Source: a virus | Taxonomy: Duplodnaviria; Caudoviricetes | Strand: one strand, 5' to 3' | Virus record (IMG/VR): IMGVR_UViG_3300048583_000524 | Coordinates: 1-50,602 of that record | DNA length: 50,602 nucleotides | Shown: piece by piece, positions 17,421 to 50,159 of the stretch | Layout: each line of letters opens with the position of its first letter | Position numbering within the stretch: the stretch's first letter is position 1 | Notes under the pieces: generated by a model | The model's database searches: none | Seen by the model: only the letters and a program-made list of their open reading frames with translations | What the model was told of the DNA's origin: nothing | Translations under genes and position numbers: made by a program

Positions 17421-17429
17421 AGATTAATT

Positions 17430-18475: not shown

Positions 18476-18511
18476 TTAGATATAATTAGTTTTGAAGTGA
18501 TAAAAATATGG

Positions 18512-18826: not shown

Positions 18827-18829
18827 ACC

Positions 18830-19075: not shown

Positions 19076-19232
19076 CGTTAAGAACTTCTTTGATACATGG
19101 CTTCGTGGTAATTGTAAACTCCTTTGGATGCTTTGGATTGTTCTGGATCCATTCCAGGAAAAGCATTGGACCCTGAGATTGCTTAGGAAAAGACATTACC
19201 CAGCCTGATGCATATGATAGTTTGGCTTTCAT
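18993..19232 (-). CDS. Hypothetical protein
   Basis: 79-aa ORF. Confidence 0.6.
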   Translation of the reverse strand: MKAKLSYASGWVMSFPKQSQGPMLFLEWIQNNPKHPKEFTITTKPCIKEVLNDDFVIRWKSGTKETITDCYEYIKSNIG

Positions 19233-19245
19233 TTTATAAGAATTT

Positions 19246-19665: not shown

Positions 19666-19710
19666 AAATATTAGTTTGTGGCCCGGCAACGCACCGGGCC
19701 CATTTATTAA

Positions 19711-20019
19711 TTAATTCTTTTGAATTGCCAAAATGAAACTTCCACATGCGTTTGATACTTCAATTCCTTCAAATTGATTATCAACGTAAGGCGCCAGATA
19801 ATCTCTGCTACTACCTACAAACCATGCGCCTTCAATACCAAGGGTATTGTTTTCACCATAATTTTTCAGGGTGGTGTCCTTAGCCAACTCAAAAGAAGAA
19901 CCCTTGCATAATTCTATGCAATCTGTCATACTATCAAATCTGCTTTTCACATTAATGTGAAGCGCTTCCCGATGCTTCCTAACGAAATATTTTACTGTAC
20001 TCATTGTAATCCTTGCCAT
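19711..20019 (-). CDS. Hypothetical protein, first gene of minus-strand operon
   Basis: Start MARITMST at 20019, 25 nt downstream of a -7 element. Confidence 0.7.
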   Translation of the reverse strand: MARITMSTVKYFVRKHREALHINVKSRFDSMTDCIELCKGSSFELAKDTTLKNYGENNTLGIEGAWFVGSSRDYLAPYVDNQFEGIEVSNACGSFILAIQKN

Positions 20020-20043
20020 AATTGTGTTGTTTGAATTGTTTAG

Positions 20044-20110
20044 CAAACATAAAAAGAATTTAGTAAATTATACTATTAAGTAGTATTATTTATTTTTTCG
20101 TTTACTTTTG
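20044..20110. promoter_or_regulatory. Divergent promoter pair with central palindrome
   Basis: Minus-strand TATGTTTG (20051-20044), plus-strand TACTTTTG (20103-20110), both exact TAnnTTTG; TAGTA-AATTA-TACTA at 20061-20075. Confidence 0.7.
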
Positions 20111-31500: not shown

Positions 31501-33026
31501 AAAACGCTTCTGAAAGCGAAAGGATTGATGCACAATTAAAACTTGATAACGATCTCCTGCAGGCTCAAATCACCTTTAATCAAAATATGGATGCAATTGA
31601 AAAGGACTTCAATAAAGCATCGATTGAAAATTCCTTCGAAAGAGCCGAAGCAATTAAAGCCATCAACAGGCAGCTGACTAAGGACCAGGTTGATCAACTT
31701 AAAAATGATGTAAAGGTTTTAGAACAGGAAGGCGAAACGGCCGTTGCCAAGTTCCAGGAAAAGATTTCACAGGCAAGGCTCGCACTTTCCAATCAAAAAC
31801 CCGGAAAGGGTAAGGCAAATGATAAGGTCAAAGCCGGCAATGAATTAGATAGGGCAGAAAACAGGGGTGTCCTTGCCATTGAAGTAGAGAACCTTCAAAA
31901 GCTATTACCTAAATACAAAACCTTATTAGATCAAAAGCTTATTACCGATGAAGAGTATTATAGATTTTTAACCAAACTCAATGACAAGGCTGCTGAATTA
32001 AACAATGCGGCTGTACAGAATATTGAGACCAATACAGGTAAGATAAGGTCAATAGGCGATCTGATCAGAAGCGGAGCAGGTAAATTATTTGGCTTTGAAA
32101 ATGGTTCTGAAGGAGCTGTGCTATTTAATCAGATAGTTACCGAGTCTTTCGACCTGGCAAAGAGTGCAATGAATTCTTATTTTGATGCTGAAATAGAACG
32201 CATCAACCAAAGCAAACAGGCACAAATAGAGCGCTTGGATTTGGAAAAAAATCAGCTGCTTGCCCGTGCCCAAAGCCGGGATGAAGAAATTTCCATCGAG
32301 CAGCAATTCCAATCCAAAAAAGCTATTCAGGAACAAAAGGCTGGGGAGCGGATAAAGAAAATAAAGAAGGCTGAAGCCAAGATCGCCTTGGCTGTGGAAT
32401 TAGGAAACCTTGCTGTCTCTGCTGCTCAAAACCCGCTAAACGGTGTTTCGTTTGGTGCCGCTGGTATTGCTATGTATGCCTTACTTGCTGGCCTTGCCAT
32501 TGGCCGCTATGCAATGCGGGTTAATGATATCAATAAAACGCAGTTTGAATATGGTGGCCAGGTACCAACAGAAACCGGTGGAAAAATAACCGGTCCTTCG
32601 CACGCAGCGGGTGGCGTTCCATTTAATTATGAAGCAGAAGGAAATGAACTTGCCATCATCCGGACGAAAAATGCACCTGCAGGTAAAAAATATTCTATAT
32701 CCGGAACACACACGCAAATTGCATCAGCGCTCAATCAATTGGGTGGTGGTAAGGGGTTTATGCCGGGTGCATCACTTTCTAAGTTCGAATATGGTGGATC
32801 CTTGGGCGAAAGCCTTCAGGCCCCGGTATTTACCCCGGCGAGTAATACGCTTCCAATCAGCGATGCAGGTTCTATCAATCAGGTATTAGATTTGCTTACC
32901 GAACAGGCCAAGGCTACACAAGCCGTAAATGCAAGAATTGACCGGTTCCAAGTTTACCAGGTAACAAGTTCAGTTACATCGGCTCAAAGGAAAGAAGTTA
33001 TTCAGGACGAAATTGGTACATTGTGA
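28584..33026 (+). CDS. Tail tape measure protein
   Basis: 1480 aa coiled-coil; GIGRKSPLILDNLGIS, central hydrophobic helices, GPSHAAGGV...EAEGNE C-terminal motif. Confidence 0.92.
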   Translation: MSDQVTKIYELKTLGYSQVQTELEAVAQSFRDIKAAKKDVEAESKRSSSSTKTETAEIIKQKEALAALKVEEQRLKVEKQQLVNESKALLVVRQQEINQQRQQKAATDAAAGSYNALNRTLKELYAQVKGAPKGSAIEFRGQTLQYDQAIIKLQELSAAEQDFRRQFSRDSLLVGEYTSGIVQAFKQMGLDDLIGGQVNKANERLQMLDNEFKDLQSTLSQIKVTGEGSLEGIEKQLIENRKEAIALKESVGDLEKELKSTGDVGNKITSAISEGFKQIKGQAVQFALSFVGIQAVFNKLSTEVAAGIEEAKQIEGVEAAFKRLNDPGLLSQLRAATKGTVSDLELMKQAVQASNFEIPLETLGNLLDFARRRAKDTGQEVDFLVQSIITGIGRKSPLILDNLGISAVRLKENLKGVTAESASIGDVATAVSAIISEENAKAGKEIDTTTESLAQQRATWQNLRTELGQGVLPILSAIGAVLLFLLTNLTTIIGVLGLFALGWALTNKELVIANARLLLVNAQIVASRIALGAITIFQTAYNASLALYTGIARGAAVATTLLGTAMRLLPIGIILTILGVLVATFRAFAAQVTSTNSELKALAMQQQINADISRRVADATTEQISKMQVLTKVAGDNNVSLEGRKRALQDLININPEYLKGLTLENLKTEEGIGILNRYVLALREKASLEAAQAIRNEKLQKDTRLQLLQFELEKRVSTGKGTELEDLPDELKEFVGNARKQFNFTASLTDLVTGESAAAEALRAIKAQRGEIVLELDATDEIIKERFANTGSTAVGVVSKQVDIDIAELQDKLKGLNEAINSFKGSQTELNKLITDRDATQKRLDSLLGKKSGGGSKSGGSKAKEDPFKNIDALLNANLATLELSRAENKISEEEFLKEFLTINQKAIASKLELIKKTGTDEIRIRAELNLSRIQLEKETQDKLFELREKEVQKEFDLAKRIAEAAFSATSENASESERIDAQLKLDNDLLQAQITFNQNMDAIEKDFNKASIENSFERAEAIKAINRQLTKDQVDQLKNDVKVLEQEGETAVAKFQEKISQARLALSNQKPGKGKANDKVKAGNELDRAENRGVLAIEVENLQKLLPKYKTLLDQKLITDEEYYRFLTKLNDKAAELNNAAVQNIETNTGKIRSIGDLIRSGAGKLFGFENGSEGAVLFNQIVTESFDLAKSAMNSYFDAEIERINQSKQAQIERLDLEKNQLLARAQSRDEEISIEQQFQSKKAIQEQKAGERIKKIKKAEAKIALAVELGNLAVSAAQNPLNGVSFGAAGIAMYALLAGLAIGRYAMRVNDINKTQFEYGGQVPTETGGKITGPSHAAGGVPFNYEAEGNELAIIRTKNAPAGKKYSISGTHTQIASALNQLGGGKGFMPGASLSKFEYGGSLGESLQAPVFTPASNTLPISDAGSINQVLDLLTEQAKATQAVNARIDRFQVYQVTSSVTSAQRKEVIQDEIGTL

Positions 33027-34036: not shown

Positions 34037-34069
34037 CTAAGTACAAAAACATTGCAGCTTTGTTCTGCG

Positions 34070-35242
34070 ATGAAAAAGAAACTACAAGTATTTAATTTCT
34101 CCATCCAGAATCAGGGCGATGATACACTCGATGTTTACATCGATGGTGATATTGTCGATGCTGAAACGCAACAAATAATGCGTGACTGGTGGGGCGACGA
34201 AACATCCGTTTCCTACAAATCTTTCCGCGATCAACTGACAGCCAGTGAAGCTAAAGTCTTCAACATCTACATTAATAGCTATGGTGGGCACGTGGGCGAT
34301 GCCATGGCGATGTATGATCTCCTGGTTGACCTTCAAAACAAAGGCAAAACCGTTAATACCATCGGCCGTGGAATCATTGCTAGTGCAGCTACCTACATAT
34401 TAATGGCAGGTAAGAACAGCGAAATCAGCAAGAATAGCTGGTTCATGGTTCATAACGTTTCGGGTGCTGTTTGGGGTGATGTTTACAGCATTGAAAACTA
34501 CGCAAAAACACTGCGGAAATTCAATGACAGGATCCGCGATTTCTATGCCGAAAGCACTGGCCTTCGCAAAGAAGAGATTTCCAAATTAATGGACCAGGAA
34601 ACATGGATGGCCGGTGATGAAACCGTAAACAAAGGTTTTGTCAAAAAACTATCCGGTGAAGCAAGTTTCAAGAACGCTATTCCTAAAGAGCAATGGGATT
34701 TTAGCAACATCGCTGTGCTCAACGCATATAACTCAGCCGTCGGCAAACCGCCCGCTCATCCACATGCTCCAGAAAACCCCGAACCAGATTCACTAATCAT
34801 TAATCACATCAACGAAATGAAAAAGTTCTTTACCGATCTCAGCGGTTCTATCATGAATGCAATTAAAGGCATAAAGCCCGCTGAAGACGGAACACAGGCA
34901 ACACTTGTAAACAGCATTGCCGATGCAGTAAGTAAGCCGTTTGAAAACTTATCTGAACAGTTTGAAAACTCTGTTGCTGATCAGGTTAAAAACGCTGTAA
35001 CCGACGCTGTAAAGGGAATGGATATAGCCACATTGGTTTCGAATGCTGTTGCAAAAGCAATAGAAGACGCGAAGCTTCCTGATGCAACTGAAATAGGCAA
35101 TCTAACCAAGAAGATTGGTGATCTCGAAAAGAAAGCCGGTGATCTTGAACAGGACATAGCCAAAAACAAAGGCAAGGAAACAGGGGCTAAAAATGAAGTT
35201 GTAAAAGAGCCTATCGGCAAGTGGAATATTCCCGGAGCCTAA
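34070..35242 (+). CDS. ClpP-type head maturation protease with scaffold-like C-terminus
   Basis: INSYGG, IIASAAT (Ser), FMVHN (His), ETWM; coiled-coil tail; ATG at 34070. Confidence 0.92.
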   Translation: MKKKLQVFNFSIQNQGDDTLDVYIDGDIVDAETQQIMRDWWGDETSVSYKSFRDQLTASEAKVFNIYINSYGGHVGDAMAMYDLLVDLQNKGKTVNTIGRGIIASAATYILMAGKNSEISKNSWFMVHNVSGAVWGDVYSIENYAKTLRKFNDRIRDFYAESTGLRKEEISKLMDQETWMAGDETVNKGFVKKLSGEASFKNAIPKEQWDFSNIAVLNAYNSAVGKPPAHPHAPENPEPDSLIINHINEMKKFFTDLSGSIMNAIKGIKPAEDGTQATLVNSIADAVSKPFENLSEQFENSVADQVKNAVTDAVKGMDIATLVSNAVAKAIEDAKLPDATEIGNLTKKIGDLEKKAGDLEQDIAKNKGKETGAKNEVVKEPIGKWNIPGA

Positions 35243-35740: not shown

Positions 35741-36763
35741 ATGTTCGAAACAGTAAGCATTGATTCTCTGTCCTTCCATAATGCCGTTATACAACCGGCT
35801 TTTCAGGACCTTATTCCTCAGGGATTTCCCTACCGCGGTACCCTGAATGAATTCACTCTCATGGATAATGTGGTAAGCAAAAGGCCTATCATAGATATCC
35901 GCAGGGTGCAAAACATTTTACAACGTCGTGATGCAAGTTGCGATGTGAATTACAAAAAGGTAGTAGGTGCAAGTACCCGTCAAATTACGGTTGACGAAGT
36001 ATATGGTGCAACCACCTTTTGCCGCAACGAATTTTATCAGGGTGCGCTGAAAGATTGGCGCAATCGTGATCCTTTGTTCGCTGATAAAGTTCTTCCCTAT
36101 TTCCAAGGAGCGGTAAACATTGACGTTGCATCCAACAGCTATTTTGGTGACATTGACCGTGTGGTTTCACCAACAGCACAATGGAGCACCAATGTATTTG
36201 ATGGCATCTTCAAATGGATTAAAAAGTATATTACCGCAACCGTAATTCCTGCTAGCCAAACAGTGGCAATTGCAGACGGTACTGATTACCTGGCTAACCC
36301 ATCTGCAGCATACAACCTGATCAAAACCTTGCATGACAAGCAGAATCCTTTGCTGTATTCCTTCGAAGACAGCCAGAAGGCTTATTACGTTAGTAAGGAA
36401 GTTGCCAACGGTTACGAAGACTACCTGATCAGTGTTGGACTCGAAGCCCAGGGTTATACCCTTTTGGAAACTGGAATTAAAACGCTGGCTTACAAAGGCA
36501 TCCCTATTATGATTGAGCCAATCTGGTCCCCAATCATCAGCGAAATAAAAGGCGCTGCTGGCTTTGCCGCTGTACTTACGCTGCGTGGAAATTTTGTTTT
36601 CGCTACCGATAAAGAATACGGTGAAGGCGAAGATGGAAAAACCGCACTTGAAGTATGGTATGAGAAAAAGGATATGAAGTGGTATTACCGCTTGTTCCTG
36701 AAAGCCGGTACACAGGTAGCATTGCCGGAGCATTTGGTGGTTGCAATGTCAAGTTGGACCTAA
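35741..36763 (+). CDS. Major capsid protein
   Basis: 340 aa downstream of ClpP; LAYKGIPI motif and HK97-like C-terminal pattern. Confidence 0.75.
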   Translation: MFETVSIDSLSFHNAVIQPAFQDLIPQGFPYRGTLNEFTLMDNVVSKRPIIDIRRVQNILQRRDASCDVNYKKVVGASTRQITVDEVYGATTFCRNEFYQGALKDWRNRDPLFADKVLPYFQGAVNIDVASNSYFGDIDRVVSPTAQWSTNVFDGIFKWIKKYITATVIPASQTVAIADGTDYLANPSAAYNLIKTLHDKQNPLLYSFEDSQKAYYVSKEVANGYEDYLISVGLEAQGYTLLETGIKTLAYKGIPIMIEPIWSPIISEIKGAAGFAAVLTLRGNFVFATDKEYGEGEDGKTALEVWYEKKDMKWYYRLFLKAGTQVALPEHLVVAMSSWT

Positions 36764-37672: not shown

Positions 37673-39064
37673 ATGACTGCAGGTCAACCAAAACATAATC
37701 AGAGAAACAATCCAAGAAAAAAAACTCGTGCCCATGTGGCTAACGAGGTGAAACTGGATGTGAAAAATCCGATTCCGTTTGAAAACCCGCAGACGTTTTC
37801 TTCCATTTCCCAACACAGGTACATCCCGTTTCTTTATCCTGATGATACCTATGCACAGCAGCTGCTTGAAGCAAGGTTAATATCTGTTACCAATAATGCT
37901 TGCATTAATACGAAAACTGATTATTGCGCCGGCCTGGGTTTTGAAGATAAAGACGGCAGAGATTTGGATCAAAAAATTATTGATTGGCTCGGGCAAATGA
38001 ACCGCAAGGCAGATAAGGCGCTTTCACTTAATAAAAAAGCTTTTGCCGGGATATTTACGTGGGGTAATCAACCAATTGAGGTAGTAAGATTCAAAGCCGG
38101 CGGTACGCCTTATTTCTATGTGTATGTTCACAACCTTTTGGAGTGGCGCTTGTGCGCTGAAAATAGTGATGGAGATGTAACACACGCTATTCGCAGTAAA
38201 TTATTTCGTAGGCAGGGAATTGCGACATCCGAGCAGCTAAAAGAAATTAAGCCAATTCCACTTTATCGCAGGAATGCAAAAGAATCAGATAATTGGCTGA
38301 AGGATGGTGATGTAGAACGTACCATGATCTGGTATTCAAATCAAGTAACTGGTTTTGATCATTATGGCTTGCCTTCAAACGTAGCAAGTATGATTTACCA
38401 ACTGCTGGAATACAAAGGTGCCAGGTATAATCTTGACAACTTCGATAATAATATGGTGCTTGGTGGCCTGCTTGCGTTGAAAGGTCAGCTTGGACAAATT
38501 GAAGCTAATAGGATAGCTAAGCAGGTTGTCTCTACCCATACCGGTGATGGAAAACGTGGCCGGGTTGCGGTTGTGGCTAGTGAAGAAGGTATTGATGGCA
38601 GTTCCTTTCATTCTTTCGATACTACTAAGGATGGAAGCTTTACAACTGCAGATGAAAAATGGATGCAAAAAATTATCCTGGCAAATGAGTGGGATGCTGT
38701 ATTAGCCGGTTTGATATCACCATCCACCATGGGTAAAGGATCTGGGTTCATCACTAAAATTCTTGAGCTAAAATTAAATACCGTTATACGTCCTGCACAA
38801 GAAGATATCATGCAAAATGTTTGGAATGACATTTTTGCTGAATGCCAAAAATGGACAAAGCTTCCTTTCGACAAATTTAATATCGGCATCAAAAACAGTA
38901 TTGATATAAGTGGCCTTACAGATGTAGATATTACTCCTGCAGTACAGGTAAATGAAGTAAGGCAAGCAAAGGGCCTTCCAGCAGATGATAAAATGGAAGG
39001 GGTTTATATGAATAGCGCAAAAGCCAAACAGGAAAAAGAAGGAGGTGAAGATGTACAACCTTAA
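37673..39064 (+). CDS. Portal protein
   Basis: 463 aa; HYGLP, FDNNMVLGG, IRPAQE, VNEVRQAKGLP portal motifs. Confidence 0.88.
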   Translation: MTAGQPKHNQRNNPRKKTRAHVANEVKLDVKNPIPFENPQTFSSISQHRYIPFLYPDDTYAQQLLEARLISVTNNACINTKTDYCAGLGFEDKDGRDLDQKIIDWLGQMNRKADKALSLNKKAFAGIFTWGNQPIEVVRFKAGGTPYFYVYVHNLLEWRLCAENSDGDVTHAIRSKLFRRQGIATSEQLKEIKPIPLYRRNAKESDNWLKDGDVERTMIWYSNQVTGFDHYGLPSNVASMIYQLLEYKGARYNLDNFDNNMVLGGLLALKGQLGQIEANRIAKQVVSTHTGDGKRGRVAVVASEEGIDGSSFHSFDTTKDGSFTTADEKWMQKIILANEWDAVLAGLISPSTMGKGSGFITKILELKLNTVIRPAQEDIMQNVWNDIFAECQKWTKLPFDKFNIGIKNSIDISGLTDVDITPAVQVNEVRQAKGLPADDKMEGVYMNSAKAKQEKEGGEDVQP

Positions 39065-39973: not shown

Positions 39974-40663
39974 ATGAGTTTAATTACTGATCATTTTGGA
40001 ACTTACTGCGTTTGTACACCTGAAAGTTCGGGCCTTCCGCAATTACCTGCGTCTGCTGATTTGGATGAAACGGCAACAACCCAAAACTCAATTACATGGG
40101 TATGGGATGCAATTGCCGGTGCAACGAATTATGTACTTGAATTTTCTACTAACGCTGGATTTACTAGCCCAACAGTAATTTACTCGGGTTCGCTTCTTAC
40201 ATATACAAGGGCCGGTCTTTCACCTGGTACTACATACTATGCAAGGGTTAAGGGTCAGGCTTCCGGATACACGGATAGCGCATGGATTACAGATAGTGCA
40301 GCAACAGTTGCGGCACCTACTACCGAAGTTGCATATTGGGGCTGGTTGGATGCGGATGCTCTTCCTAATGAAGCTGCTATCCTTGCTGGCCAGGGTACCG
40401 ATGACTTTCCTTTTGGTGCAACTATCGTTGCTGACTTTACGGCAAATACAGATCCTAAATATTTATGGATGGCAGAGCGGAGTACTGAGCCTACAAAAAC
40501 GGTTTGGTATGGCAGCGCATTAAACAACGGGGCCATTGGTGCATCTGAAACATTCGCAATAAAAGGCACATCAGCCAGCGGATCAGGGGCAAGCTGGAGA
40601 GTGTATATGTCCACCTTCCAAACGGAGCAAACGGATACTACTATTGAATTCCGCGTAATCTAA
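39974..40663 (+). CDS. Fibronectin type III domain virion protein
   Basis: SITWVWDAIAGATNYVLE...GLSPGTTYYARVKG. Confidence 0.8.
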   Translation: MSLITDHFGTYCVCTPESSGLPQLPASADLDETATTQNSITWVWDAIAGATNYVLEFSTNAGFTSPTVIYSGSLLTYTRAGLSPGTTYYARVKGQASGYTDSAWITDSAATVAAPTTEVAYWGWLDADALPNEAAILAGQGTDDFPFGATIVADFTANTDPKYLWMAERSTEPTKTVWYGSALNNGAIGASETFAIKGTSASGSGASWRVYMSTFQTEQTDTTIEFRVI

Positions 40664-40710
40664 TTTAATAAAAACGGGTGCGGGTAAAACCGCATCCAAA
40701 ATTTTCTAAT

Positions 40711-42021
40711 ATGCCAATTCAAATAAATGATGGATTCCAGCCAAATGCACCAAGGGCGATAGACTTGCGCTCCGGGAAAATTGCATTAGGCAAAACGGTG
40801 CCTTATGCAAGTGTAGCAGAAGCATTGGCAGCGATAAACGTGGCATATAGGCATGAGGGGTTAGAATTCTTAGTGAATGATGGCACCTTAAAAAAGTATC
40901 GTTTCACAAGTGATTATGCTGAAGACGGTGTGGAAGAAATAGGGAGTGGTGGTAATGTTGCCTGGAGTGATATAACAGGTAAGCCATCTACTTTTTCACC
41001 TTCAGAGCATAGCCATTTTGATTTTGTATCACGACCTGCAGCAGAAGATAATGAATGGTATGCAGTCACCTATGGTAATGGATTATTTGTTGCAGTTTCA
41101 TTTACTGGTTCAAACAGGGTTATGACTAGCCCGGATGGTATAACCTGGACTTCAAGAACCGCAGCAGTTAATAATAATTGGCGGGCCGTCACATATGGTA
41201 ACGGGTTATTTGTTGCGGTCTCTTTTGATGGCTCAGAAAGGGTAATGACCAGTCCAGACGGTATAACCTGGACTTCAAGAACTGCAGCAGAAAACAATCT
41301 ATGGATTTCAGTCACCTATGGTAATGGATTATTTGTTGCAGTTTCATTTACTGGTTCAAACAGGGTTATGACTAGCCCGGATGGTATAACCTGGACTTCA
41401 AGAACCGCAGCAGAAAACAATGATTGGAGTGCTGTCACCTATGGTAATGGATTATTTGTCGCTGTTGCATCAAGCGGTTCAAACCTAGTTATGACTAGCC
41501 CGGATGGTATAACCTGGACTTCAAGAACTGCAGCAGAAAACAATGATTGGCGTGCTGTCACCTATGGTAATGGATTATTTGTTGCTGTTGCAGCATCTAC
41601 TGGGAATAAGATTATGACCAGTCCAAATGGTATAACCTGGACTTCAAGAACTACTCCAGAAATTACTGGGTCGAATACAATTACTTATGGCAATGGATTA
41701 TTTGTTGCAATTGCAGCTTCAGGCACAAATAGAGTAATTAGAAGCACCGATGGTATTACATGGGTATTAGCAACAGCGCCAGATAATGGTTGGCGTGCCG
41801 TCGCCTATGGTAACGGATTGTTTGTCGCCGTTGCTTCAAGCGGAACAAACAGAACAATTGCAACAGGATCCATGGGAACAGAAACATCAATATTATACTC
41901 TTTGACACCCGTTAATACAGCAGACGTTCGAGGCGAAATTAACGATATAAGGTATGATGATACCTATATCTACATTAAGACAAGTTCAGGATGGAAGCGA
42001 ACAGCCTTATCATCATTTTAA
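40711..42021 (+). CDS. Tail fibre/receptor-binding protein with 7-bladed beta-propeller
   Basis: WSDITGKPSTFSPSEHSH fibre motif; seven W..VTYGNGLFVAV...TSPDGITWT repeats; ATG at 40711. Confidence 0.8.
   Translation: MPIQINDGFQPNAPRAIDLRSGKIALGKTVPYASVAEALAAINVAYRHEGLEFLVNDGTLKKYRFTSDYAEDGVEEIGSGGNVAWSDITGKPSTFSPSEHSHFDFVSRPAAEDNEWYAVTYGNGLFVAVSFTGSNRVMTSPDGITWTSRTAAVNNNWRAVTYGNGLFVAVSFDGSERVMTSPDGITWTSRTAAENNLWISVTYGNGLFVAVSFTGSNRVMTSPDGITWTSRTAAENNDWSAVTYGNGLFVAVASSGSNLVMTSPDGITWTSRTAAENNDWRAVTYGNGLFVAVAASTGNKIMTSPNGITWTSRTTPEITGSNTITYGNGLFVAIAASGTNRVIRSTDGITWVLATAPDNGWRAVAYGNGLFVAVASSGTNRTIATGSMGTETSILYSLTPVNTADVRGEINDIRYDDTYIYIKTSSGWKRTALSSF
41029..41870 (+). repeat. Seven coding tandem repeats of about 123 nt (41 aa)
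   Basis: Units 1 and 3 share 105 identical nt (41063-41167 vs 41309-41413). Confidence 0.95.
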
Positions 42022-42046: not shown

Positions 42047-42487
42047 ATGAGAGAATACTTTATAAGCATACTTCAGGGAATTATTTATCCGGATGCAAGA
42101 TTGATGGTTGTTCTGCTTGCATTCATTTTTATAGATCTGCTAACTGGTATAAGAAAAAGCAAGAAAAAAGGAATTACAACGAAAAGTGCTGGTCTTAGAA
42201 TGACGATAGATAAAGCAACTTCATACTTCAGCTTCCTTCTCTGTGTTTTTTTACTTGCTAATATTTCAAAGCCTGGTACAGATAGCCATTTTGCTGAAGT
42301 GATACTTGATAACAGTTTGAATGCACTTTTCCTTGCAAGCATCTACATTGAATTTAAAAGCATTCTGGAAAATATTATGGAAGCTAATCCGGATAGTGAC
42401 CTTGTGAAATATGTGATAAGGCCGCTCCATAACATTATAATTCTAAAGTTTAAAACCCTTCCTTTTCAGGACGTTAAAAAGGATTAA
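42047..42487 (+). CDS. Holin (phage holin 4 family-like)
   Basis: IDLLTGIRKS...SAGLRMTIDK...EFKSILEN; three TM segments. Confidence 0.85.
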   Translation: MREYFISILQGIIYPDARLMVVLLAFIFIDLLTGIRKSKKKGITTKSAGLRMTIDKATSYFSFLLCVFLLANISKPGTDSHFAEVILDNSLNALFLASIYIEFKSILENIMEANPDSDLVKYVIRPLHNIIILKFKTLPFQDVKKD

Positions 42488-42504
42488 TTTCTATAAATAA
42501 TTTT

Positions 42505-43017
42505 ATGAAATACAACAGCCCGGTATATAAAATATTCGGAATTTTTATTGTAGCGCTCATACTTCTTTTTATGGCTATTGGGCTTGTAGGGTGTTCCTTT
42601 ATGCGCGAGATGGAAAAAAAAGATGATGAAACCAAATCGCTTACAAAATCGGATAGCAGCTACTTAAAAAAGGATAATAAAAGCTCTTTAACTGTTGATG
42701 AATGGACCAAAATAACAGAGCGCTTTGGAACACAACCACCACCCGTAATTCAAGGTGGCGATACCAATATCACCAATACTATTTATCAGCCAATATTGGA
42801 GCGCATCATCGAGCGTGGATCCCGGCAAGCTGCTACTCAATCATCATCAACTGATAGCGGCACACTCAATCGCTTAAATGCCATCGAGAAACTACTCACT
42901 ACCAAAACAGTTGATACCGAAACACAGGTATTAAACATCTGGCACATGATAGGAATAGCAGCTATTGTTGCCGTTGTAATGATTTTGCTTTCTAAACTTA
43001 AAATTGGGCTAAGATGA
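42505..43017 (+). CDS. Putative unimolecular spanin
   Basis: N-terminal lipobox LVG-C30 and C-terminal TM helix; between holin and endolysin. Confidence 0.7.
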   Translation: MKYNSPVYKIFGIFIVALILLFMAIGLVGCSFMREMEKKDDETKSLTKSDSSYLKKDNKSSLTVDEWTKITERFGTQPPPVIQGGDTNITNTIYQPILERIIERGSRQAATQSSSTDSGTLNRLNAIEKLLTTKTVDTETQVLNIWHMIGIAAIVAVVMILLSKLKIGLR

Positions 43018-43424
43018 GAGAGATAAAACACATCGTTGTTCATTGTACGGCCACACCACAAACTACAACAGTAGCAAGCATCCAAAACTATTGGCGTAGT
43101 ACATTAAAATGGAAAAGCCCCGGTTATCACATCATTGTTCATGCTGATGGAACGCTTACCCGTTTACAGCCAAATGAAAAACCAACCAATGGTGTAGCCG
43201 GTCATAATGCCAATTCTCTACATGTAAGTTATATCGGCGGTATCGATAAAGAAGGCAAACCAAAGGATACACGCACGCTCAATCAAAAGCAAAGCCTTTT
43301 GGCAGTTATAACTGTTTGGAAGCGCCTTTTTCCCAATGCCATTGTGCAAGGCCACAGAGATTTCCCTGGTGTATCAAAAGCATGCCCATCATTCGATGCA
43401 AAAAAAGAATATAAAAATATTTAA
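43014..43424 (+). CDS. Endolysin, N-acetylmuramoyl-L-alanine amidase (Amidase_2, T7 lysozyme-like)
   Basis: IVVHCTAT, GYH, GHNANS, GHRDF, KACPSF. Confidence 0.95.
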   Translation: MREIKHIVVHCTATPQTTTVASIQNYWRSTLKWKSPGYHIIVHADGTLTRLQPNEKPTNGVAGHNANSLHVSYIGGIDKEGKPKDTRTLNQKQSLLAVITVWKRLFPNAIVQGHRDFPGVSKACPSFDAKKEYKNI

Positions 43425-43445: not shown

Positions 43446-43919
43446 ATGGGATACACATTCACAAAATCGGGCAATGTAACAGCCGTTGATGGACCCGGTG
43501 TCAAAATCAAAACCAAGGCAAGATGCTTATTGTCTTATGACGAAATGTCTCAAAGAATTAGTATCACGTTTGGTGATTCCGATTATCGGACTACTATTAA
43601 TATTCCAGTAAGTGAAATTGATTCAATCAATTCCGTTGCACCGGATTCGGATATTGAAATCCTGCTAAACCAGGTTATAAGGGTATTGCCCGATCAGGAC
43701 AACTCAGCTGCATCTGCAGCGGCTATAACTCCTAGTAATGAAGATGATATTGCTGCCACACGCGGTGTATATGTAGGCGGTACCGGTACCGTGGTGGCCA
43801 TTATAAATGGTGCCGCTGTAACCTTTACGAATGCAGCGGCAGGAAGTGTATTGCCCATTCAAACCACGCGTATAAATGCAACCGGTACAACTGCAACGGG
43901 ACTAATTGCACTTTATTAA
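43446..43919 (+). CDS. Head-spike base-like protein (RcGTA Rcc01079-like C-terminal domain)
   Basis: AAAITPSNEDDIAATRGVYVGGTG...VTFTNAAAGSVLPIQTTRINATGTTATGLIALY. Confidence 0.75.
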   Translation: MGYTFTKSGNVTAVDGPGVKIKTKARCLLSYDEMSQRISITFGDSDYRTTINIPVSEIDSINSVAPDSDIEILLNQVIRVLPDQDNSAASAAAITPSNEDDIAATRGVYVGGTGTVVAIINGAAVTFTNAAAGSVLPIQTTRINATGTTATGLIALY

Positions 43920-43928
43920 AAACAGTTT

Positions 43929-46259
43929 ATGATAGGCATTGGTATTTCATTACATCTTCAAAAAATAGGAGTAAGCACGCCACCGGTAAATACCGTGCTG
44001 CCTGGTATATCAGGTACACCGACTAATGGTTCAGTATTAACGGTTATCCCTGGTACCTACACAGGATCACCTTCGGCACCAACATATCAATGGTATGCGA
44101 ATGGTGTTGCGATAGTCGGGGCTACCAATACAACGTTTACAGTAGGGATAAATCAGCTTGAAAAGGTAATTACTGTTGTGGAAAATGTTGGCAGTGGCGT
44201 TAGTGCTACATCATTACCGACAGTATCGGTATATTATACTTTTACACATTCAGAAGCATCAACGTTCGTAGCTTCACAATCTCCCATACCGGAGATAAAT
44301 AAATACTACTATGATGATTTTGTTAGCAAGCTTAAAACCGGAGTAATAACGGGCTTGACAAAATTTGATTACTTTTATCTATTGACAAGCATTGACAGGC
44401 CAAGTAGTTTAAAAAATATAATTAACCCGGCGGGATTTAGTGCTGCTTTAATAGAAACCACGCCAAACACTTTAGGCTTTACACCTTGGGGTGGATATAG
44501 TGGTTTTAGCGCTGACGGATATTTAGGAGCAGGTAGGACTCCCGTGCAATTGGTTAAATACACTCAGAACGATGCCCACTTTGGAGTCTACGTTGGAGAG
44601 AGTTTAGGTAGTAGTTCAGGATTAGTCGGTGCTGAAACAAACCAAAACATGCAGCTTAGGGGTAGTGATGGAACTAACGGAACATGCCGTATAAATGGCC
44701 CAACTATTACTTTTGCGAATGTTACAAGTGCAGGTGGGTATATTATCAACCGTACAACAAATGCTAATGTTCAGATATATAGAAATGGTAATCCAGGTCC
44801 AACTTTTACAAATAATACAAGTACGACAAAACATAGCCAACCAATATTATTTGGGAGGCAGACATCTGCATATTGTGCATCGCCTATTTTAGCGGAACAC
44901 GGTGGAGCATCATTAAATGCTACTGAAGCAGCTAACGTGAATAATGCTATTGTAGAACTTTATCAAAATTTGGGTATTCTCCCAGGTGTAAATGCTGCAA
45001 AATTAGTACAAGCTAAATTCCCTGCCGATATAAACGGAAGAAGTTATCGTGACGCATCAATGGTAACTACTTTAATAGGAGGTGTAGAGTACCAAGTTCA
45101 AGCGTATTGGAATATTGACGCATACGCAATTATTCAGTACAGAACACGCACGGATGCTAATCTACCATTTGGAACATGGACAAGTTTTATATATGATGGT
45201 ACGGATGGGTTACCTGTTATACAGCAAAATGAAATTGTCAACGACCATAAAAATTTGAATGTGGGATTTGACCGTGACGGTTATGTGCATTTGGCATATA
45301 ACAATCATAACAATCCACTTGTTTATCGTAGAGCATCACAGCCTATTACAAGCTGGACAGGTGCAGTCGATGCTCTTACCAATCCGTTCCCTGGAGCATC
45401 AATTACTTCATATACAAAATTCTTTAACGACCCATCAGGCAAACTGTATTTAATCTACCGTAATGGTGGAGCTACTGCTGGTGGCATAGCTATGTCTCAG
45501 TATAGTGAAACAACTGGGTGGAGCGTTCCAAGTGGGTTGAATAGCAACGGGGAACTTTGCAATGAAACAATACTTACCAATGCGGGTGCATATCCGTATA
45601 GTGTAGGCTTCGACCCTGACTTCGGTTCAGGCGGTCACTTCCATTTCGCCTGGCATTGGAAAGTCGGGGGTGGTGGAAACCAGCAGATAGGCTATTTACG
45701 TTGGGATGGCACTAATTGGAAAAAGGCCGACAATTCACCACAAACAATGCCGGCAGCAATGCTTAATCAGGATACGGTGGAAAACAACACAGCGTATATG
45801 GGCCTTGGCGGTCAGAACTCATGTAAGAGCGACCATTTGGGCCGGCCACACATTGCATACATTATTAATGACCTTCCGCAAGCAGACCCCGCACGTAGAG
45901 CGAGAGTACGTCATGCTTACCACAACGGTACATCCTGGGTTAAAACAGATGTACTGATTAGTCCTGACATACTCGATTGCGGCGATCCTGAGAATGACTT
46001 CTGGCGGTGTCCTGATATTGCTATCAACCAAACCACAGGCAAAGTATATATCCTTTTAGCCTTGTTCGGCAGCAATGGGCTGCGTATGCTAAGTGGCCCG
46101 GCACCTTATACCACTTGGAGCACTACAGTTTTAGATACCACTAACATAGGCGAATGGTCACCAACCTTCGATGAATGGCAATGGCGTAATCATTTAAAGT
46201 TGTGGATACCTGTACAATCATCATTGCAATTAAAAATCATAGAACATACCCCCGCATGA
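43929..46259 (+). CDS. Head-spike/fibre protein: Ig-like, lectin-like and BNR-4 repeat propeller domains
   Basis: MIGIGISL N-terminus; PPVNTVLPGISG...YQWYANG Ig-like domain; HKNLNVGFDRDGYVHLAYNNHNNPLVYRRA...SYTKFF...LIYRNG. Confidence 0.7.
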   Translation: MIGIGISLHLQKIGVSTPPVNTVLPGISGTPTNGSVLTVIPGTYTGSPSAPTYQWYANGVAIVGATNTTFTVGINQLEKVITVVENVGSGVSATSLPTVSVYYTFTHSEASTFVASQSPIPEINKYYYDDFVSKLKTGVITGLTKFDYFYLLTSIDRPSSLKNIINPAGFSAALIETTPNTLGFTPWGGYSGFSADGYLGAGRTPVQLVKYTQNDAHFGVYVGESLGSSSGLVGAETNQNMQLRGSDGTNGTCRINGPTITFANVTSAGGYIINRTTNANVQIYRNGNPGPTFTNNTSTTKHSQPILFGRQTSAYCASPILAEHGGASLNATEAANVNNAIVELYQNLGILPGVNAAKLVQAKFPADINGRSYRDASMVTTLIGGVEYQVQAYWNIDAYAIIQYRTRTDANLPFGTWTSFIYDGTDGLPVIQQNEIVNDHKNLNVGFDRDGYVHLAYNNHNNPLVYRRASQPITSWTGAVDALTNPFPGASITSYTKFFNDPSGKLYLIYRNGGATAGGIAMSQYSETTGWSVPSGLNSNGELCNETILTNAGAYPYSVGFDPDFGSGGHFHFAWHWKVGGGGNQQIGYLRWDGTNWKKADNSPQTMPAAMLNQDTVENNTAYMGLGGQNSCKSDHLGRPHIAYIINDLPQADPARRARVRHAYHNGTSWVKTDVLISPDILDCGDPENDFWRCPDIAINQTTGKVYILLALFGSNGLRMLSGPAPYTTWSTTVLDTTNIGEWSPTFDEWQWRNHLKLWIPVQSSLQLKIIEHTPA

Positions 46260-47413
46260 TAGAAGCACAAAACCTTTGGAGCAAGATTAAAGCCCAGGCC
46301 GCTATAGATGTCGACCTAACTTTTGTGCGTGATAGCAGCCTGCCAATAGGTGCTTATAAAATACATGGGCCTTTGGTGGTGCATTGTAGTACAGATGATG
46401 AACCGGGAGCCGTATATGCGGTTGCTCGTATTGCTGCGGAGATGGGTTTCGCAATGCATCAGCCGGGGGTAATTACCCGCGAATCTGTGAAGCCTTTTAC
46501 CGATTGGAAGATTGATTATGTGCCGCAGTATGATATCCTTCACTTGGATAACAAAGTGCCTGGTAAGTTGAAGCCTTGGTTTCATTGGCACCATGTGCCT
46601 ACAGTGCCGCTCGACGAAAGTTACCACCGTAGCTGGTGGATACAGTTCCCACATAGGTATCCTAAAATTGCAAGTGGGGTTACCCGATGCAATATTCTAC
46701 ATGAACAATTTCCAATCATTGTTTACCAGGATTGGCTTGAAAGGCGCAAACCTGAAACAGTAAGTCTATTTGAAGTGGATGGAACCGGATATGCCTGGGC
46801 AGCAAATGTAATTTCCACGCCCGCTGGTTTAAATGCCTTTGAAAAGGAATGCTGGGATAAGACAATTGCGATCGGCGCTCGCACAGACAAGCCTTTAGGC
46901 ACGCGGGTTTCAAGGGCAGGGAAAGTAATGTATTATACACAACGTGCTGCTGATGCCATCAATTCGCTACCCTATAACGATAACAGCGATCGGCCAAAGG
47001 TGAACTATACCGACTTATATGTAAGGGCCTACAAGGCCATTGAAGCCTGTTTCCATGCGCACGGTGAGCGGCCACGGTTTCGCGTTCTGGCATATGCGTG
47101 CTACTTCAAAGCGCCCGCATTCGTTAATATGAGCGGCTTTGATGTGCATTACGTTTCGCCCGGCGCTGGAGCCTGGACACGCGAGCTTATGGAAGCTGAC
47201 CTGCTGAACTGGCAGGCCTGGAAACTTACTGGCGCAAAAATGATATGGCGCCCAAACCTATGGTTAAATAACAACCTGCCCGATATGGGGCTGGTTACTG
47301 AATTTATAAAGCGTGCGCGGCCCGATGGGCTGGTATGCGCTACAAATTATCGGGCTGAGCTTAATAGCAGCTTGTATGCTATTTTTAAGGCATTGCAGGG
47401 TTTGTTTCAATAA
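46256..47413 (+). CDS. DUF4838-like putative carbohydrate-active protein
   Basis: ATG at 46256 (ATGA overlap); GAVYAVARIAAEMGF (GH20/GH67-like N-domain), LAYACYFKAP, WRPN. Confidence 0.5.
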   Translation: MIEAQNLWSKIKAQAAIDVDLTFVRDSSLPIGAYKIHGPLVVHCSTDDEPGAVYAVARIAAEMGFAMHQPGVITRESVKPFTDWKIDYVPQYDILHLDNKVPGKLKPWFHWHHVPTVPLDESYHRSWWIQFPHRYPKIASGVTRCNILHEQFPIIVYQDWLERRKPETVSLFEVDGTGYAWAANVISTPAGLNAFEKECWDKTIAIGARTDKPLGTRVSRAGKVMYYTQRAADAINSLPYNDNSDRPKVNYTDLYVRAYKAIEACFHAHGERPRFRVLAYACYFKAPAFVNMSGFDVHYVSPGAGAWTRELMEADLLNWQAWKLTGAKMIWRPNLWLNNNLPDMGLVTEFIKRARPDGLVCATNYRAELNSSLYAIFKALQGLFQ

Positions 47414-47448: not shown

Positions 47449-47470
47449 GGCCTGGGTTTCTACCCGGGCC
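47449..47470 (+). terminator. GC-rich hairpin (terminator or sRNA element)
   Basis: GGCCTGGGT-ttct-ACCCGGGCC. Confidence 0.55.
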
Positions 47471-47694: not shown

Positions 47695-47737
47695 TAAATT
47701 ACCTTTATGGTTGTTTAAGGGTTTAGGGTTTTGAATT

Positions 47738-47769
47738 CCCCAGGTGTCTACCCGGGGTTTTTCTTTTTC
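47738..47769 (+). terminator. Intrinsic terminator
   Basis: CCCCAGGT-gtct-ACCCGGGG followed by long T-run. Confidence 0.75.
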
Positions 47770-47796: not shown

Positions 47797-47858
47797 TACC
47801 ATAAACATCCGCAATTTATTAACACATAACGCCTTACTTTACATTTAAAGGCAACAAG

Positions 47859-48037
47859 GTTATTTTTAAAGAGTTTGGTGGGATATATCATTCGGTTAAT
47901 AAAGAACATTTGCAGGCTTACATAAATGAATTTACTTTGCGGTTTAATATCAATAAATTCATAATTAAGGATGGGCTTGATCTCGTTTGGCGAATGTTAC
48001 AGATAAAAGAATGACCTATGAAAGCCTAATAAATTAA
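47859..48037 (+). pseudogene. IS1595-family transposase C-terminal remnant
   Basis: GIYHSVNKEHLQAYINEFTLRFN, then after a frameshift DKRMTYESLIN*. Confidence 0.8.
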
Positions 48038-48168
48038 TGATGAAACTTAACTTACAGGGAAAGGAAATATCTATTTTGCAGGTTGGCAACCAGGTTTTTG
48101 TCAGCCTTTCTGATATTGTAAAAGGATGCAAGTGTCACAGATCACCTAAAAAACAGGAGGCAGAATAG
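48037..48168 (+). pseudogene. KilA-N domain N-terminal remnant
   Basis: MMKLNLQGKEISILQVGNQVFVSLSDIVKG, then early stop. Confidence 0.55.
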
Positions 48169-48315
48169 CAATTCTGTTAAAGATTTAATGGATGGGAATG
48201 TTATTAATAGCTCAATTACCAGCTTATTGACAGCTAAAATAAACTTGAAAAAAATAATTTTGGACAACAACTAAAAGGATTAGCGAGTACAATCAACCTA
48301 AAAAGGAAATTAATA

Positions 48316-49287
48316 ATGGCCGACAAAAAAAAATCAACAAAAATAATAGCCCAGCCTTACCAAAGAATAAGTGATGATAAAGATAAATTTTATGGATTCT
48401 TAGATGAATCTAAATTGGTTTCGCATAAAACAGAAAGGCTTTCGATTGTTGATCTAAGTAAGTTAGTTATAGAAGCCATTGAATACGCTAATAAGAAATC
48501 CAGCCGAGAATTGCTTGAAATCCCGGCATTAATCACTGACCAGAAGCTGAAAGAGTTTTATGTAAAGAAAGGTAGGGAGTTATTTAAATATTTTGTAAGG
48601 TATTGCGGAGATCCAGCATCTACAGCATATGATTGTTTAAATAAACACTATTCTAATGTGGCAAAAGATAATTTCAGAAACAATCTTATTCAGAAAGGTA
48701 GAATGAACTCAGGATGGCGTTATCAGCATATCGCTAAAGATGCTGCCAGATTATCTAATAGGTTCGATTCAGTTTCTGACCTAAATTTAAAAGAAGCAGA
48801 CTTCAATGCAGTCCTGCGATACATAGAATCAAAGGATAAGATTAGCATTTATGTTTCAATGAAAAATCGCAGCAATACGATGGGCGGTCAGGATTGGCCT
48901 AAGGCAATTCACGCATTAGAATCAGCAGCGAATAATGATAAAAACAGGGGTGGAAATTATATATGTGTATTTGGCATTGCAATGGAAAAGGGACAGAGAT
49001 TTATAAAGGTAAGCAGGGAAACAGGGTTGCCCATTTCCTACAATACAGAAGTGTGGCTGTCTGATTACTTTTGGCCATTTTTTACAAATTTTACTTATGA
49101 AGAAATTGCCAAAACGGTACTAGATGTCTTAATTAAAGATGGGAGACAATCAAGTTTTGATATAGAGATACCAGAATTAGTAATAGAATCATTTGGAATC
49201 GAATGCAATAAATATTCTTTAATTGATACCAACGGAAACTTTAATGATGCTCACAGATTGGTTGACTTATTTACTGGAACATTATGA
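48316..49287 (+). CDS. Putative type II restriction endonuclease
   Basis: EADF...VSMKNRSNTM PD-(D/E)XK-like core; ATGA-coupled to a methyltransferase; AT-rich. Confidence 0.7.
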   Translation: MADKKKSTKIIAQPYQRISDDKDKFYGFLDESKLVSHKTERLSIVDLSKLVIEAIEYANKKSSRELLEIPALITDQKLKEFYVKKGRELFKYFVRYCGDPASTAYDCLNKHYSNVAKDNFRNNLIQKGRMNSGWRYQHIAKDAARLSNRFDSVSDLNLKEADFNAVLRYIESKDKISIYVSMKNRSNTMGGQDWPKAIHALESAANNDKNRGGNYICVFGIAMEKGQRFIKVSRETGLPISYNTEVWLSDYFWPFFTNFTYEEIAKTVLDVLIKDGRQSSFDIEIPELVIESFGIECNKYSLIDTNGNFNDAHRLVDLFTGTL

Positions 49288-50159
49288 ACAACAATAAACA
49301 ACATTTGGATATTTGGGAAGGTGATGCGAGAAAGATATTAAAGGATAACTATCCAGATGGATTTTTTAATCTAATAGTTACTTCTCCCCCTTATGCGGAT
49401 GCAAGAAAAAAGCATTATGACAGCATAAGCACAAAAGAATATCCTGACTTTTTTAAAACTTTCCATGATGAACTGTGGAGGGTCTTAAAGGATGACGGAT
49501 CTTTTATATTAAACATAAAGGACAAGGTTATAGACGGAGTTCGAGATAGGTATGTTTGGAAAACCGTAATGATGCTTAGTGAATTGGGGTGGAGATGTGT
49601 AGACGATTATGTATGGCTAAAGCCCAATGCTATGCCTGGATATTGGCCAAATCGTTTGCGGGATGAATGGGAGTATTGTTTTCATTTTACAAAGCAGACA
49701 AAATTTAAAATGTATCAAAATTCAGTAAAAAAACCCATTGGTGGTTGGGCACCAAAAAGGCTTGAAAAACTAACAGGTAAAAGTGCAGAAAGGCACAACA
49801 GTGAAAACGAGAGTGGTTTTGGTAGAGATTTGCGTAAATGGGTTAATAAGGATTTGGTCTTGCCTGGGAATACGATTTCTGTACCTTTAGTAGGTAAGGA
49901 TATGGGGCATCCGGCTGTTTTCCCTACAGGATTGCCTGACTTTTTTATAAAATTATTTACGACGGATGGTGATAATGTATTAGACCCGTTCGGAGGTAGT
50001 GGCTCTACGGGACTTTCCGGGATCGAATTAAATAGAAATGTCGTTTTAATTGATAACAATAAAAAATATATAGAAACTATGAAATCCAGACTAGGAAAGT
50101 ATGCACCTATTGTTCATTCGCCATCTATAAATAAGAAAAAAGATTCCAAAGCAGCATAG
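49284..50159 (+). CDS. Beta-class amino DNA methyltransferase (likely N4-cytosine)
   Basis: TSPPY (IV) precedes HPAVFP and VLDPFGGSGST (I). Confidence 0.93.
   Translation: MNNNKQHLDIWEGDARKILKDNYPDGFFNLIVTSPPYADARKKHYDSISTKEYPDFFKTFHDELWRVLKDDGSFILNIKDKVIDGVRDRYVWKTVMMLSELGWRCVDDYVWLKPNAMPGYWPNRLRDEWEYCFHFTKQTKFKMYQNSVKKPIGGWAPKRLEKLTGKSAERHNSENESGFGRDLRKWVNKDLVLPGNTISVPLVGKDMGHPAVFPTGLPDFFIKLFTTDGDNVLDPFGGSGSTGLSGIELNRNVVLIDNNKKYIETMKSRLGKYAPIVHSPSINKKKDSKAA

Follow-up and report, generated by a model that had tools for sequence, protein, structure and literature searches.

A candidate enzyme-tipped capsid spike, with a PL42-type propeller and a DUF4838-like partner, encoded by a phage of a probable Bacteroidota host

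Can a phage carry a carbohydrate-active enzyme on its head? The question is raised by a cassette of three genes, here called g1, g2, and g3, in a virus (Duplodnaviria; Caudoviricetes) held as IMG/VR record IMGVR_UViG_3300048583_000524, which we analyzed over its whole length of 50,602 bases (hereafter, the window); the record is linear, with a CheckV completeness of 100%. An earlier reading made from the letters alone (the sequence-only reading) had likened the cassette to the head spikes of the Rhodobacter gene transfer agent (RcGTA) and had proposed that a capsule-binding and possibly capsule-degrading enzyme is displayed on the head. In the systems that we compared, the depolymerase Dpo31 of phage Carin-1 and the RcGTA tailspike, virion-borne capsule-degrading enzymes are described as being on the tail, and as trimeric where solved. 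Based on our analyses, g1 and g2 would form a capsid-vertex spike of the RcGTA/Carin-1 type that carries a lyase of the polysaccharide lyase family 42 (PL42) type as its cargo, and g3 would encode a glycosidase-like partner that acts on the same glycan; we hold this combined reading with somewhat more confidence than doubt.

As judged from its sequence and from a predicted model, the C-terminal part of g1 (residues 85–157) genuinely belongs to the Rcc01079 spike-base family. For the NCBIfam model NF048002 (“spike base protein, RCAP_Rcc01079 family”), whose cut-off is 28 bits, it scores 66.5 bits and aligns with profile positions 11–85 of 85 (67.1 bits at the DNA level). When g1 was compared by phmmer with all PDB chains, only two sequences matched at E ≤ 10, and both are spike bases: 8cjz_h, “Spike Base Protein” (E = 6.7e-7), and 6tb9, “Head spike base Rcc01079” (E = 4.6e-6). 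The same two lead the Foldseek results for the AlphaFold2 (AF2) model of g1. The first, 6tb9_A1, aligned with a probability of 1.00, a template modeling (TM) score (target) of 0.63, and a root-mean-square deviation (rmsd) of 2.5 Å over 69 columns, and the second, 8cjz_h (“Carin1 bacteriophage mature capsid”), with a probability of 1.00, a TM score of 0.62, and an rmsd of 2.4 Å over 71 columns; the remaining rows had E ≥ 0.059. The C-terminal domain of about 70 residues from which the sequence-only reading started is therefore real and far above chance, and g1 resembles Rcc01079 in both sequence and fold, as that reading had expected. Carin-1, a podovirus, infects the gammaproteobacterium Cobetia marina (PMC13317679), and the presence of its base protein on the mature capsid shows that this family has a place on true phage capsids beyond the Alphaproteobacteria.

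It is in how its domains are arranged, and not in the family domain itself, that g1 departs from its relatives. When IMG/VR was scanned with a base-domain alignment, at least 433 confirmed relatives emerged among at least 603 pattern matches, and the best 80 loci were used for comparison. The base open reading frame (ORF) is at most 96 aa long in 71 of these 80, and the usual base is a single domain of about 77–96 aa with a short capsid-binding N-terminus. At 157 aa, g1 does not have this form, which bears out the earlier observation of an extra N-terminal domain of about 85 residues. Residues 1–85 had no family match in Pfam, PHROG, or NCBIfam, and tblastn of the extension against all retrieved loci returned only the window itself. 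The extension is common to one other protein only, P0002 (66% identity over 100% of length), which argues that it is translated.

The other half of the proposed joint is the start of g2. RcGTA has eleven head spikes, each composed of an Rcc01079 pentamer and a single Rcc01080 fiber, and in Rcc01080 only residues 2–10 (I-A-L-G-L-G-L-G-L) are described as ordered, in a five-point star that places the (iso)leucines in hydrophobic pockets of the five base subunits (PMC7296036). The translation of g2 agrees with the MIGIGISL start that had been singled out from the sequence, and it has five alternating hydrophobic residues (I2, I4, I6, L8, and L10) in a register equal to that of Rcc01080 residues 2–10. 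Among the real genes of the window, g2 is the sole ORF with such a pattern.

The pairing of a base gene with a plug-type fiber gene recurs in other phages. We scored an ORF as plug-type when five alternate hydrophobic residues lay within its first residues, using comparison ORFs of at least 60 aa; the resulting counts rest on this simple pattern and on first-start ORF calls. The next ORF downstream of the base gene was plug-type in 20 of the 80 best loci, compared with 33 of 3865 other ORFs there, an enrichment of about 29-fold; in nine of the 80 loci, a downstream ORF was absent within reach. Among the 20 star-peptide loci, the commonest gap between base and fiber is 9 nt (nine loci), which is also the gap between g1 and g2. 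Upstream of the base genes, a PHROG scan of 61 non-redundant neighbors assigned 33 to a family and left 28 without one. The 33 comprise head and packaging (13), connector (6), tail (3), moron (2), and DNA metabolism (1) families, along with eight of unknown function. In L081, the single contig recovered by a metagenome scan, the base gene lies directly 3′ of a gene that is portal-like by eye, and this short contig ends at the base gene. For the cargo, we scanned 22 partner fibers with Pfam, 12 from the strict set and 10 looser ones chosen by eye. CBM_4_9 was found in two fibers, Laminin_G_3 in two (one below the cut-off), PA14/GLEYA in one, and weak matches to DUF642 and WbsX in one each, which fits a glycan-directed role; 15 of the 22 had no Pfam family. 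By these sequence comparisons, the socket-and-plug pair is a widespread phage module, placed mostly with head genes and carrying glycan-directed cargo. The sequence-only reading had described the system as one far from Alphaproteobacteria. With regard to the host, this holds, as the phage points to Bacteroidota (see below); as a statement of novelty it is too strong, given the solved Carin-1 base, the NCBIfam model, and the IMG/VR relatives counted above.

Behind the plug peptide, g2 continues with an Ig-like domain, a middle domain, and a β-propeller. PHROG families 12736, 1407, and 4069 (Hoc-like head decoration) match within residues 18–93, and the homologues found for residues 1–400 cover about 15–29% (the Ig part only) and carry Ig-type Pfam families, in agreement with the Ig-like domain of the sequence-only reading. 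That reading had also proposed a lectin-like region, and here the outcome is more guarded. PHROG 26223 matches residues 17–292, and in the Atlas structure comparison the middle domain is nearest to clusters of viral hypothetical proteins (TM score of 0.77). Its nearest named family is a ConA-like/Laminin_G_3 cluster (Atlas score of 0.85), which we take as a lead only, and the domain is possibly lectin-like. The same Ig and middle module (g2 residues 19–285, 31% identity) forms the C-terminus of a 775-aa protein of Sinorhizobium phage phiM12 (L108, locus 800–4505), which has a partial GDSL lipase domain and adjoins an endolysin gene. This suggests that the binding module is shuffled between different phage surface enzymes. 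Two loci were rejected as further spikes. In phiM12, the small gene 5′ of the fiber is without a TGTTA-type motif by eye, and there is neither a spike base nor a plug peptide; a Mesorhizobium phage match to g2 residues 1–167 is internal to a 1571-aa protein and not at its N-terminus.

The propeller at the C-terminal end of g2 is likely a PL42-type enzyme, as suggested by its family match and its conserved residues. Pfam BNR_4 (PF15892) was matched at 98.6 bits against a cut-off of 27.3 (E = 5.4e-28), with g2 residues 391–675 aligned to profile positions 4–269 of 272, so the BNR-4-type propeller noticed earlier is recovered with confidence. In the PDB, the propeller matches Bacteroides proteins of glycoside hydrolase (GH) family GH145 (5MUM, 4IRT, 5MVH, and 5MUK; E from 1e-12 to 1e-9, about 330 residues aligned) as well as the Fusarium L-Rha-α-1,4-GlcA lyase FoRham1 (7ESK; E = 3.4e-4). 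GH145 is now called PL42 and shares its fold with the ulvan lyase families PL24 and PL25; PL27 cuts the same bond as PL42 but has a different fold (PMC8377490). In FoRham1, His85 acts as base/acid, His105 is supporting, Tyr150 is needed, and Arg166 neutralizes the carboxylate, and mutants of these four residues are reported to have abolished or strongly lowered activity (PMC8377490). In the 7esk alignment, where chain positions 87, 107, 152, and 168 are by our own count the published numbering plus 2, these residues pair with H440, H460, Y495, and R511 of g2. All four columns show no variation across the alignment (16/16 sequences), namely in g2 and 15 relatives from a 301-genome sample of the Bacteroidota, the phylum of genome G001 (see below), in which 17 genomes matched; an 863-aa fused form (L096) and a 318-aa protein (L105) were left out of the alignment. 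A propeller lacking its catalytic His, Tyr, and Arg would have spoken against an enzyme, and g2 keeps these residues.

The propeller shares its Pfam family, and the His/His/Tyr/Arg set, with FoRham1, BT3686, BACINT_00347, and BACCELL_00856. In g2 it is fused behind the plug peptide, the Ig domain, and the binding domain. Its cellular relatives, in contrast, stand alone at about 440 aa (range, about 390–500 aa), and most of them have a hydrophobic, signal-peptide-like N-terminus by eye. Among phages, a single-protein scan of IMG/VR with the g2 propeller found no close relative, and only two of 50,697 phage records match the propeller part, of which one looks bacterial. The best propeller match in this phage collection, MT836317.1 (L082, “UNVERIFIED Bacteriophage sp.”, from human feces), was rejected, as by eye it looks like a fragment of a bacterial polysaccharide-utilization locus. 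Its ORFs, also by eye, include a sigma/anti-sigma pair, a HemN-like gene, and several signal-peptide-bearing glycosidase-like proteins.

The start of g3 overlaps the stop of g2 in a shared 4-nt ATGA (junction GCATGATAG), confirming the coupling that had been read from the sequence. Its product is without a signal peptide by eye, and it had no PHROG, NCBIfam, or PDB sequence match. In the Atlas feature comparison (0.93), the ten best named matches were all DUF4838 (10/10), and in the Atlas structure comparison a DUF4838 cluster aligned over 325 residues with a TM score of 0.71. In GH163 (BT1035, an endo-β-GlcNAcase) and GH185 (Sp_0475, a 6-sulfo-GlcNAcase), DUF4838 forms the catalytic domain; it is distantly related to GH20 (PMC10570127). 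An AF2 model of g3 (predicted local distance difference test [pLDDT] score of 85.6) was made from 16 sequences, with P0029 and P0031–P0033 left out and P0015 added. Foldseek related this model to GH20 and GH84 hexosaminidases with a probability of about 0.99, at TM scores of only 0.3–0.4. VIA-align gave Z = 14.5 to the GH20 enzymes GcnA and GH20C (rmsd of 5.2–5.6 Å, 287–292 residues aligned, spanning residues 1–385) and Z of about 13 to GH84. By these predicted structures, g3 has an N-terminal α/β domain followed by a TIM barrel, as in GH20 and GH84, and the DUF4838/GH20-like assignment of the sequence-only reading stands on features and structure. In the 16 sequences, D175 is invariant (16/16), and E173, Y280, and Y283 are conserved. 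In the model, D175, Y280, and Y283 each come directly behind a predicted strand of the barrel.

Nearest to DUF4838 clusters by features and structure, and with a two-domain GH20/GH84-type fold, g3 falls below the Pfam model and forms a tiny separate family. A HMMER search of 1.84 billion protein representatives found 19 relatives at E ≤ 0.001, g3 itself included. Several of the 15 relatives that we examined look signal- or membrane-anchored at the N-terminus by eye, and none of the 15 has a plug-peptide start, which suggests that g3 is not itself a plug-type fiber. No relatives were found by pattern scan of IMG/VR or of the GTDB representative genomes, nor by tblastn of the 50,697 phage records. 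A fold search of BFVD gave one weak match, a hexosaminidase of a crAss-like phage (E = 4.4e-4, TM score of 0.24).

The host is probably a Bacteroidota bacterium, as the sequence-only reading had supposed. The terminase TerL (13786–15201) is 66% identical to prophage genes in a metagenome-assembled genome (MAG) of Flavihumibacter sp. and in an uncultured bacterium, and a 56%-identical copy of the amidase lies 23 kb from the Flavihumibacter TerL. Flavihumibacter belongs to the Chitinophagaceae (Bacteroidota). Shine-Dalgarno-like motifs precede only 3 of the 37 gene starts of the window, and scarce Shine-Dalgarno motifs are typical of Bacteroidota. The amidase homologue of the related Flavihumibacter prophage (L090, G001:C38:349800-350186) contains one in-frame TAG.

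We propose that these parts would work together as follows. On every capsid penton, five g1 subunits would assemble into a jellyroll socket, as inferred from the two solved relatives, and the first ten residues of a single g2 would plug this socket as a five-point star, with I2, I4, I6, L8, and L10 each filling one pocket; the identical register in Rcc01080 is what points to such docking. In RcGTA, the base contacts the capsid through a short N-terminus. In this phage, the extra N-terminal domain of g1 would probably contact the phage's own capsid. A single flexible fiber would then carry the Ig-like domain, the phage-type, probable glycan-binding domain, and the PL42-type seven-bladed propeller. 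The latter most likely acts as a lyase that needs no metal and cleaves off a sugar, probably rhamnose, attached to O4 of a uronic acid in the capsule or exopolysaccharide of the host, and its chemistry would be β-elimination at the 4-O-substituted uronic acid, as in PL42, PL24, and PL25. Up to eleven such monomeric enzymes on each head would attach to the capsule and remove it locally before engagement of the tail. One fiber per pentamer, as in RcGTA, would suit a cargo that is single and not trimeric, as a seven-bladed propeller is. The g3 product, co-translated with g2, most likely has the same glycan as its substrate and would be either set free at lysis or borne on the fiber. For its role, we rank a lysis-released helper enzyme as the most likely, carriage on the fiber second, and an unrelated moron function third.

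Compared with the RcGTA head spike (Rcc01079 or GhsA, and Rcc01080 or GhsB; PDB 6TB9/6TBA/6TSU/6TUI), the cassette is alike in base homology, in the order of base then fiber, and in plug register, and capsule is the presumed target in both. It differs in that the host belongs to another phylum, the element is a true phage and not a gene transfer agent, the base has an extra 85-aa N-terminal domain, and the fiber has 776 aa (325 aa in RcGTA) with an enzyme-type propeller at its end; a third, glycosidase-like gene is coupled to the pair, and the cassette lies 3′ of the lysis genes. Carin-1 provides the best PDB sequence match to g1, yet its depolymerase Dpo31 is on the tail fibers and not on the head (PMC13317679). 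Trimeric tail-spike depolymerases such as Dpo31 and the RcGTA tailspike TspA have the same presumed job, virion-borne cleavage of capsule or exopolysaccharide. Those enzymes are described on the tail, and Dpo31 is trimeric in the crystal (PMC13317679), whereas here a single-copy propeller is proposed to sit on the vertices by means of a ten-residue plug. The socket-and-plug kind of spike is known; what differs from the descriptions that we found is the PL42-type cargo, the extra base domain, the coupled GH163/GH185-like gene, and the Bacteroidota host. We found no title or abstract describing an enzyme on a head spike in the literature covered, which did not extend to subscription journals.

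If the enzyme-tipped spike is real, phage heads could carry catalytic cargo as well as binders, and the plug and socket would allow single-copy, non-trimeric enzymes to be displayed on virions. Capsule stripping could start at the first, non-oriented contact, before the tail engages, and a PL42-type propeller would be placed in a virion protein. A tag of ten residues for docking proteins on capsid vertices would also be useful for display. If the spike is not real, the three genes still make up an ordinary accessory module active on glycans. One can go further and suppose that the plug and pentameric socket are a general way to hang single-copy, non-trimeric carbohydrate-active enzymes on vertices, something beyond the reach of trimeric tail spikes, that the head is a two-enzyme capsule-stripping device in which g3, on or with the fiber, completes the cleavage, and that the N-terminal domain of g1 adapts the socket to a new capsid lineage. 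This extended picture is speculative, and we would not expect it to hold as a whole.

A number of observations weigh against the enzyme-tipped spike. The AF2 model of g1 is poor, with a mean pLDDT of 57 (70–77 in the C-terminal part and 32–69 in the N-terminal domain), and g1 is atypical in size, as seen above from the 71 of 80 relatives. For g3, a comparison with Pfam, including DUF4838 (PF16126), gave nothing at E ≤ 0.1. Its conserved residues could not be paired with those mapped in Sp_0475. In addition, GC content at third codon positions is 0.47 in g3 (0.48 over all positions), compared with 0.33 in g1 and g2 and 0.42 in the whole record, which hints that g3 was acquired separately from the spike genes. 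The further points on this side belong to one or the other of the alternatives that follow.

The alternative that survives best is a capsid spike that only binds, with the propeller and middle domain serving as lectins without cleavage and g3 being an unrelated accessory enzyme. We consider it unlikely, although several lines of evidence fit it. The RcGTA fiber is described as a lectin-like binder, and the terms lyase, depolymerase, degrad, and enzymatic are absent from the text of PMC10218006. The domains recognized in the other fibers are binding modules, and Pfam found BNR_4 in 0 of those 22. The propeller itself is very divergent, being only 23–30% identical to any relative found, the PL42 propellers included, and with 67.8 bits it falls far short of the 700-bit cut-off for the BT3686 α-L-rhamnosidase equivalog (NCBIfam NF052497); by sequence, it is a distant family member and not a BT3686 equivalog. 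Only four active-site residues could be aligned, and Tyr202 and Arg220 of FoRham1 could not be aligned to g2. Several GH145/PL42 proteins are also reported as inactive in published assays (PMC8377490). However, all four of the FoRham1 activity residues discussed above are kept, in invariant columns, and a pure binding role would not need catalytic residues, so that their conservation counts against binding as the only function.

Less probable again is a module off the capsid, in which g1 and g2 would belong to the tail or neck, or would be non-virion late enzymes freed at lysis from a moron-like cassette. The PHROG family matched by g1 (12296) carries the label “tail fiber protein,” and tail proteins make up 3 of the 33 annotated upstream neighbors in other phages. 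The cassette lies 3′ of the lysis genes, 4–9 kb downstream of the head genes, on the arm of the genome that in a related prophage holds the integrase: by eye, the Flavihumibacter prophage has small genes after its holin and amidase, and then an integrase and host genes. The closest prophages (TerL 66%) are those of G001 and G002, both MAGs that may be incomplete, in which the queries used gave no match to g1, g2, the propeller, or NF048002, so that the cassette counts as an accessory module at a variable genome arm. On the other hand, both solved relatives of g1 sit on capsid pentons, and the neighbors are head or connector genes in 19 of the 33 annotated cases. A five-fold plug would fit a five-fold vertex, whereas tails offer three-, six-, or twelve-fold sites, and the PHROG label is an annotation only.

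A third explanation draws on XepA, a two-domain jellyroll pentamer from a Bacillus prophage lysis cassette, and its one-domain form YomS, both pentameric discs whose authors suggest possible docking on capsid pentons (PMC6834076). That g1 is such a lysis-aiding pentamer of two jellyroll discs and not a spike base is very improbable: it too has two parts and adjoins the amidase gene, but no XepA or YomS chain appeared among its PDB sequence matches (E ≤ 10) or 50 best Foldseek rows, its Rcc01079 family match is specific, and a plug-type fiber gene follows it.

The layout of the cassette and of its surroundings is collected in Table 1. The ORFs are placed as the sequence-only reading had claimed, with three tightly linked genes after a lysis module. 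The amidase stop and the g1 start are 21 nt apart, g1 and g2 are separated by 9 nt, and g2 and g3 overlap as described. A terminator-like hairpin begins 36 nt 3′ of the g3 stop.

Table 1. Positions in the window of the cassette, its domains and residues of interest, and nearby genes
Feature	Positions	Strand	Remarks
g1	43446-43919	+	157 aa
g1 extra N-terminal domain	43446..43700	+	residues 1-85, Ala/Ser-rich linker at end
g1 spike-base domain	43698..43919	+	residues 85-157 + stop; Rcc01079 family
g2	43929-46259	+	776 aa
g2 N-terminal plug peptide (candidate)	43929..43958	+	M-I-G-I-G-I-S-L-H-L; hydrophobic at 2, 4, 6, 8, 10
g2 Ig-like domain	43977..44207	+	~residues 17-93
g2 middle domain	44211..44999	+	~residues 95-357, phage-specific
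g2 BNR_4 / PL42-type β-propeller	45099..46259	+	residues 391-776 + stop
g2 H440 codon	45246-45248	+	catalytic-equivalent
g2 H460 codon	45306-45308	+	catalytic-equivalent
g2 Y495 codon	45411-45413	+	catalytic-equivalent
g2 R511 codon	45459-45461	+	catalytic-equivalent
g3	46256..47413	+	385 aa, ATG at 46256; divergent DUF4838-like (GH163/GH185-type, GH20/GH84-fold)
Terminator-like hairpin closing cassette	47449-47470	+	9 pairs, 7 G-C, then T-rich tail; consensus match only
Lysis module (holin, membrane protein, amidase)	42047..43424	+	directly 5′ of g1
Holin	42047-42487	+	Pfam PF05105
Transmembrane protein	42505-43017	+	between holin and amidase genes
Amidase	43014-43424	+	Pfam PF01510; PHROG 822, E 1e-44
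Head protease	34052-35242		upstream of cassette
Probable capsid protein	35741-36763		upstream of cassette
Portal, weak match	37673-39064		upstream of cassette

Just 5′ of the holin, positions 39974–42021 encode a 229-aa FN3/SusE-like protein followed by a 447-aa repeat protein. The latter contains about six tandem repeats of 123 nt (41 aa) that are 78–81% alike in DNA, and its Pfam matches to EPTP and DUF6242 suggest a propeller. Both products may be tail fiber or receptor-binding proteins, or further decoration.

On the other side of the cassette, a second hairpin near 47736–47760 is similar to the terminator-like one. Between the cassette and the next genes, positions 47800–48320 are non-coding, and one start-less frame there resembles the C-terminal end of a transposase. 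Its ...EFTLRFN... motif is one that we take to be from IS1595-type enzymes, and the frame may be the scar of a mobile element. At 48316–50159, a 323-aa protein without a known family is coupled to a DNA methyltransferase (PHROG 67, E = 9e-48); at this end of the genome, the two may be a restriction-modification pair. Positions 11467–12924 encode another methyltransferase, which has a ParB-like N-terminus.

Across 13786–39716, the genes stand in an unusual order. After the terminase gene come a minus-strand block (15217–20046), then genes without a family, and then the tape-measure gene (28584–33026); the head protease, probable capsid, and portal-like genes follow only behind it. Three HNH endonuclease genes, assigned by PHROG, lie at 3815–4699, 6472–6903, and 16385–16849, in the replication and packaging regions.

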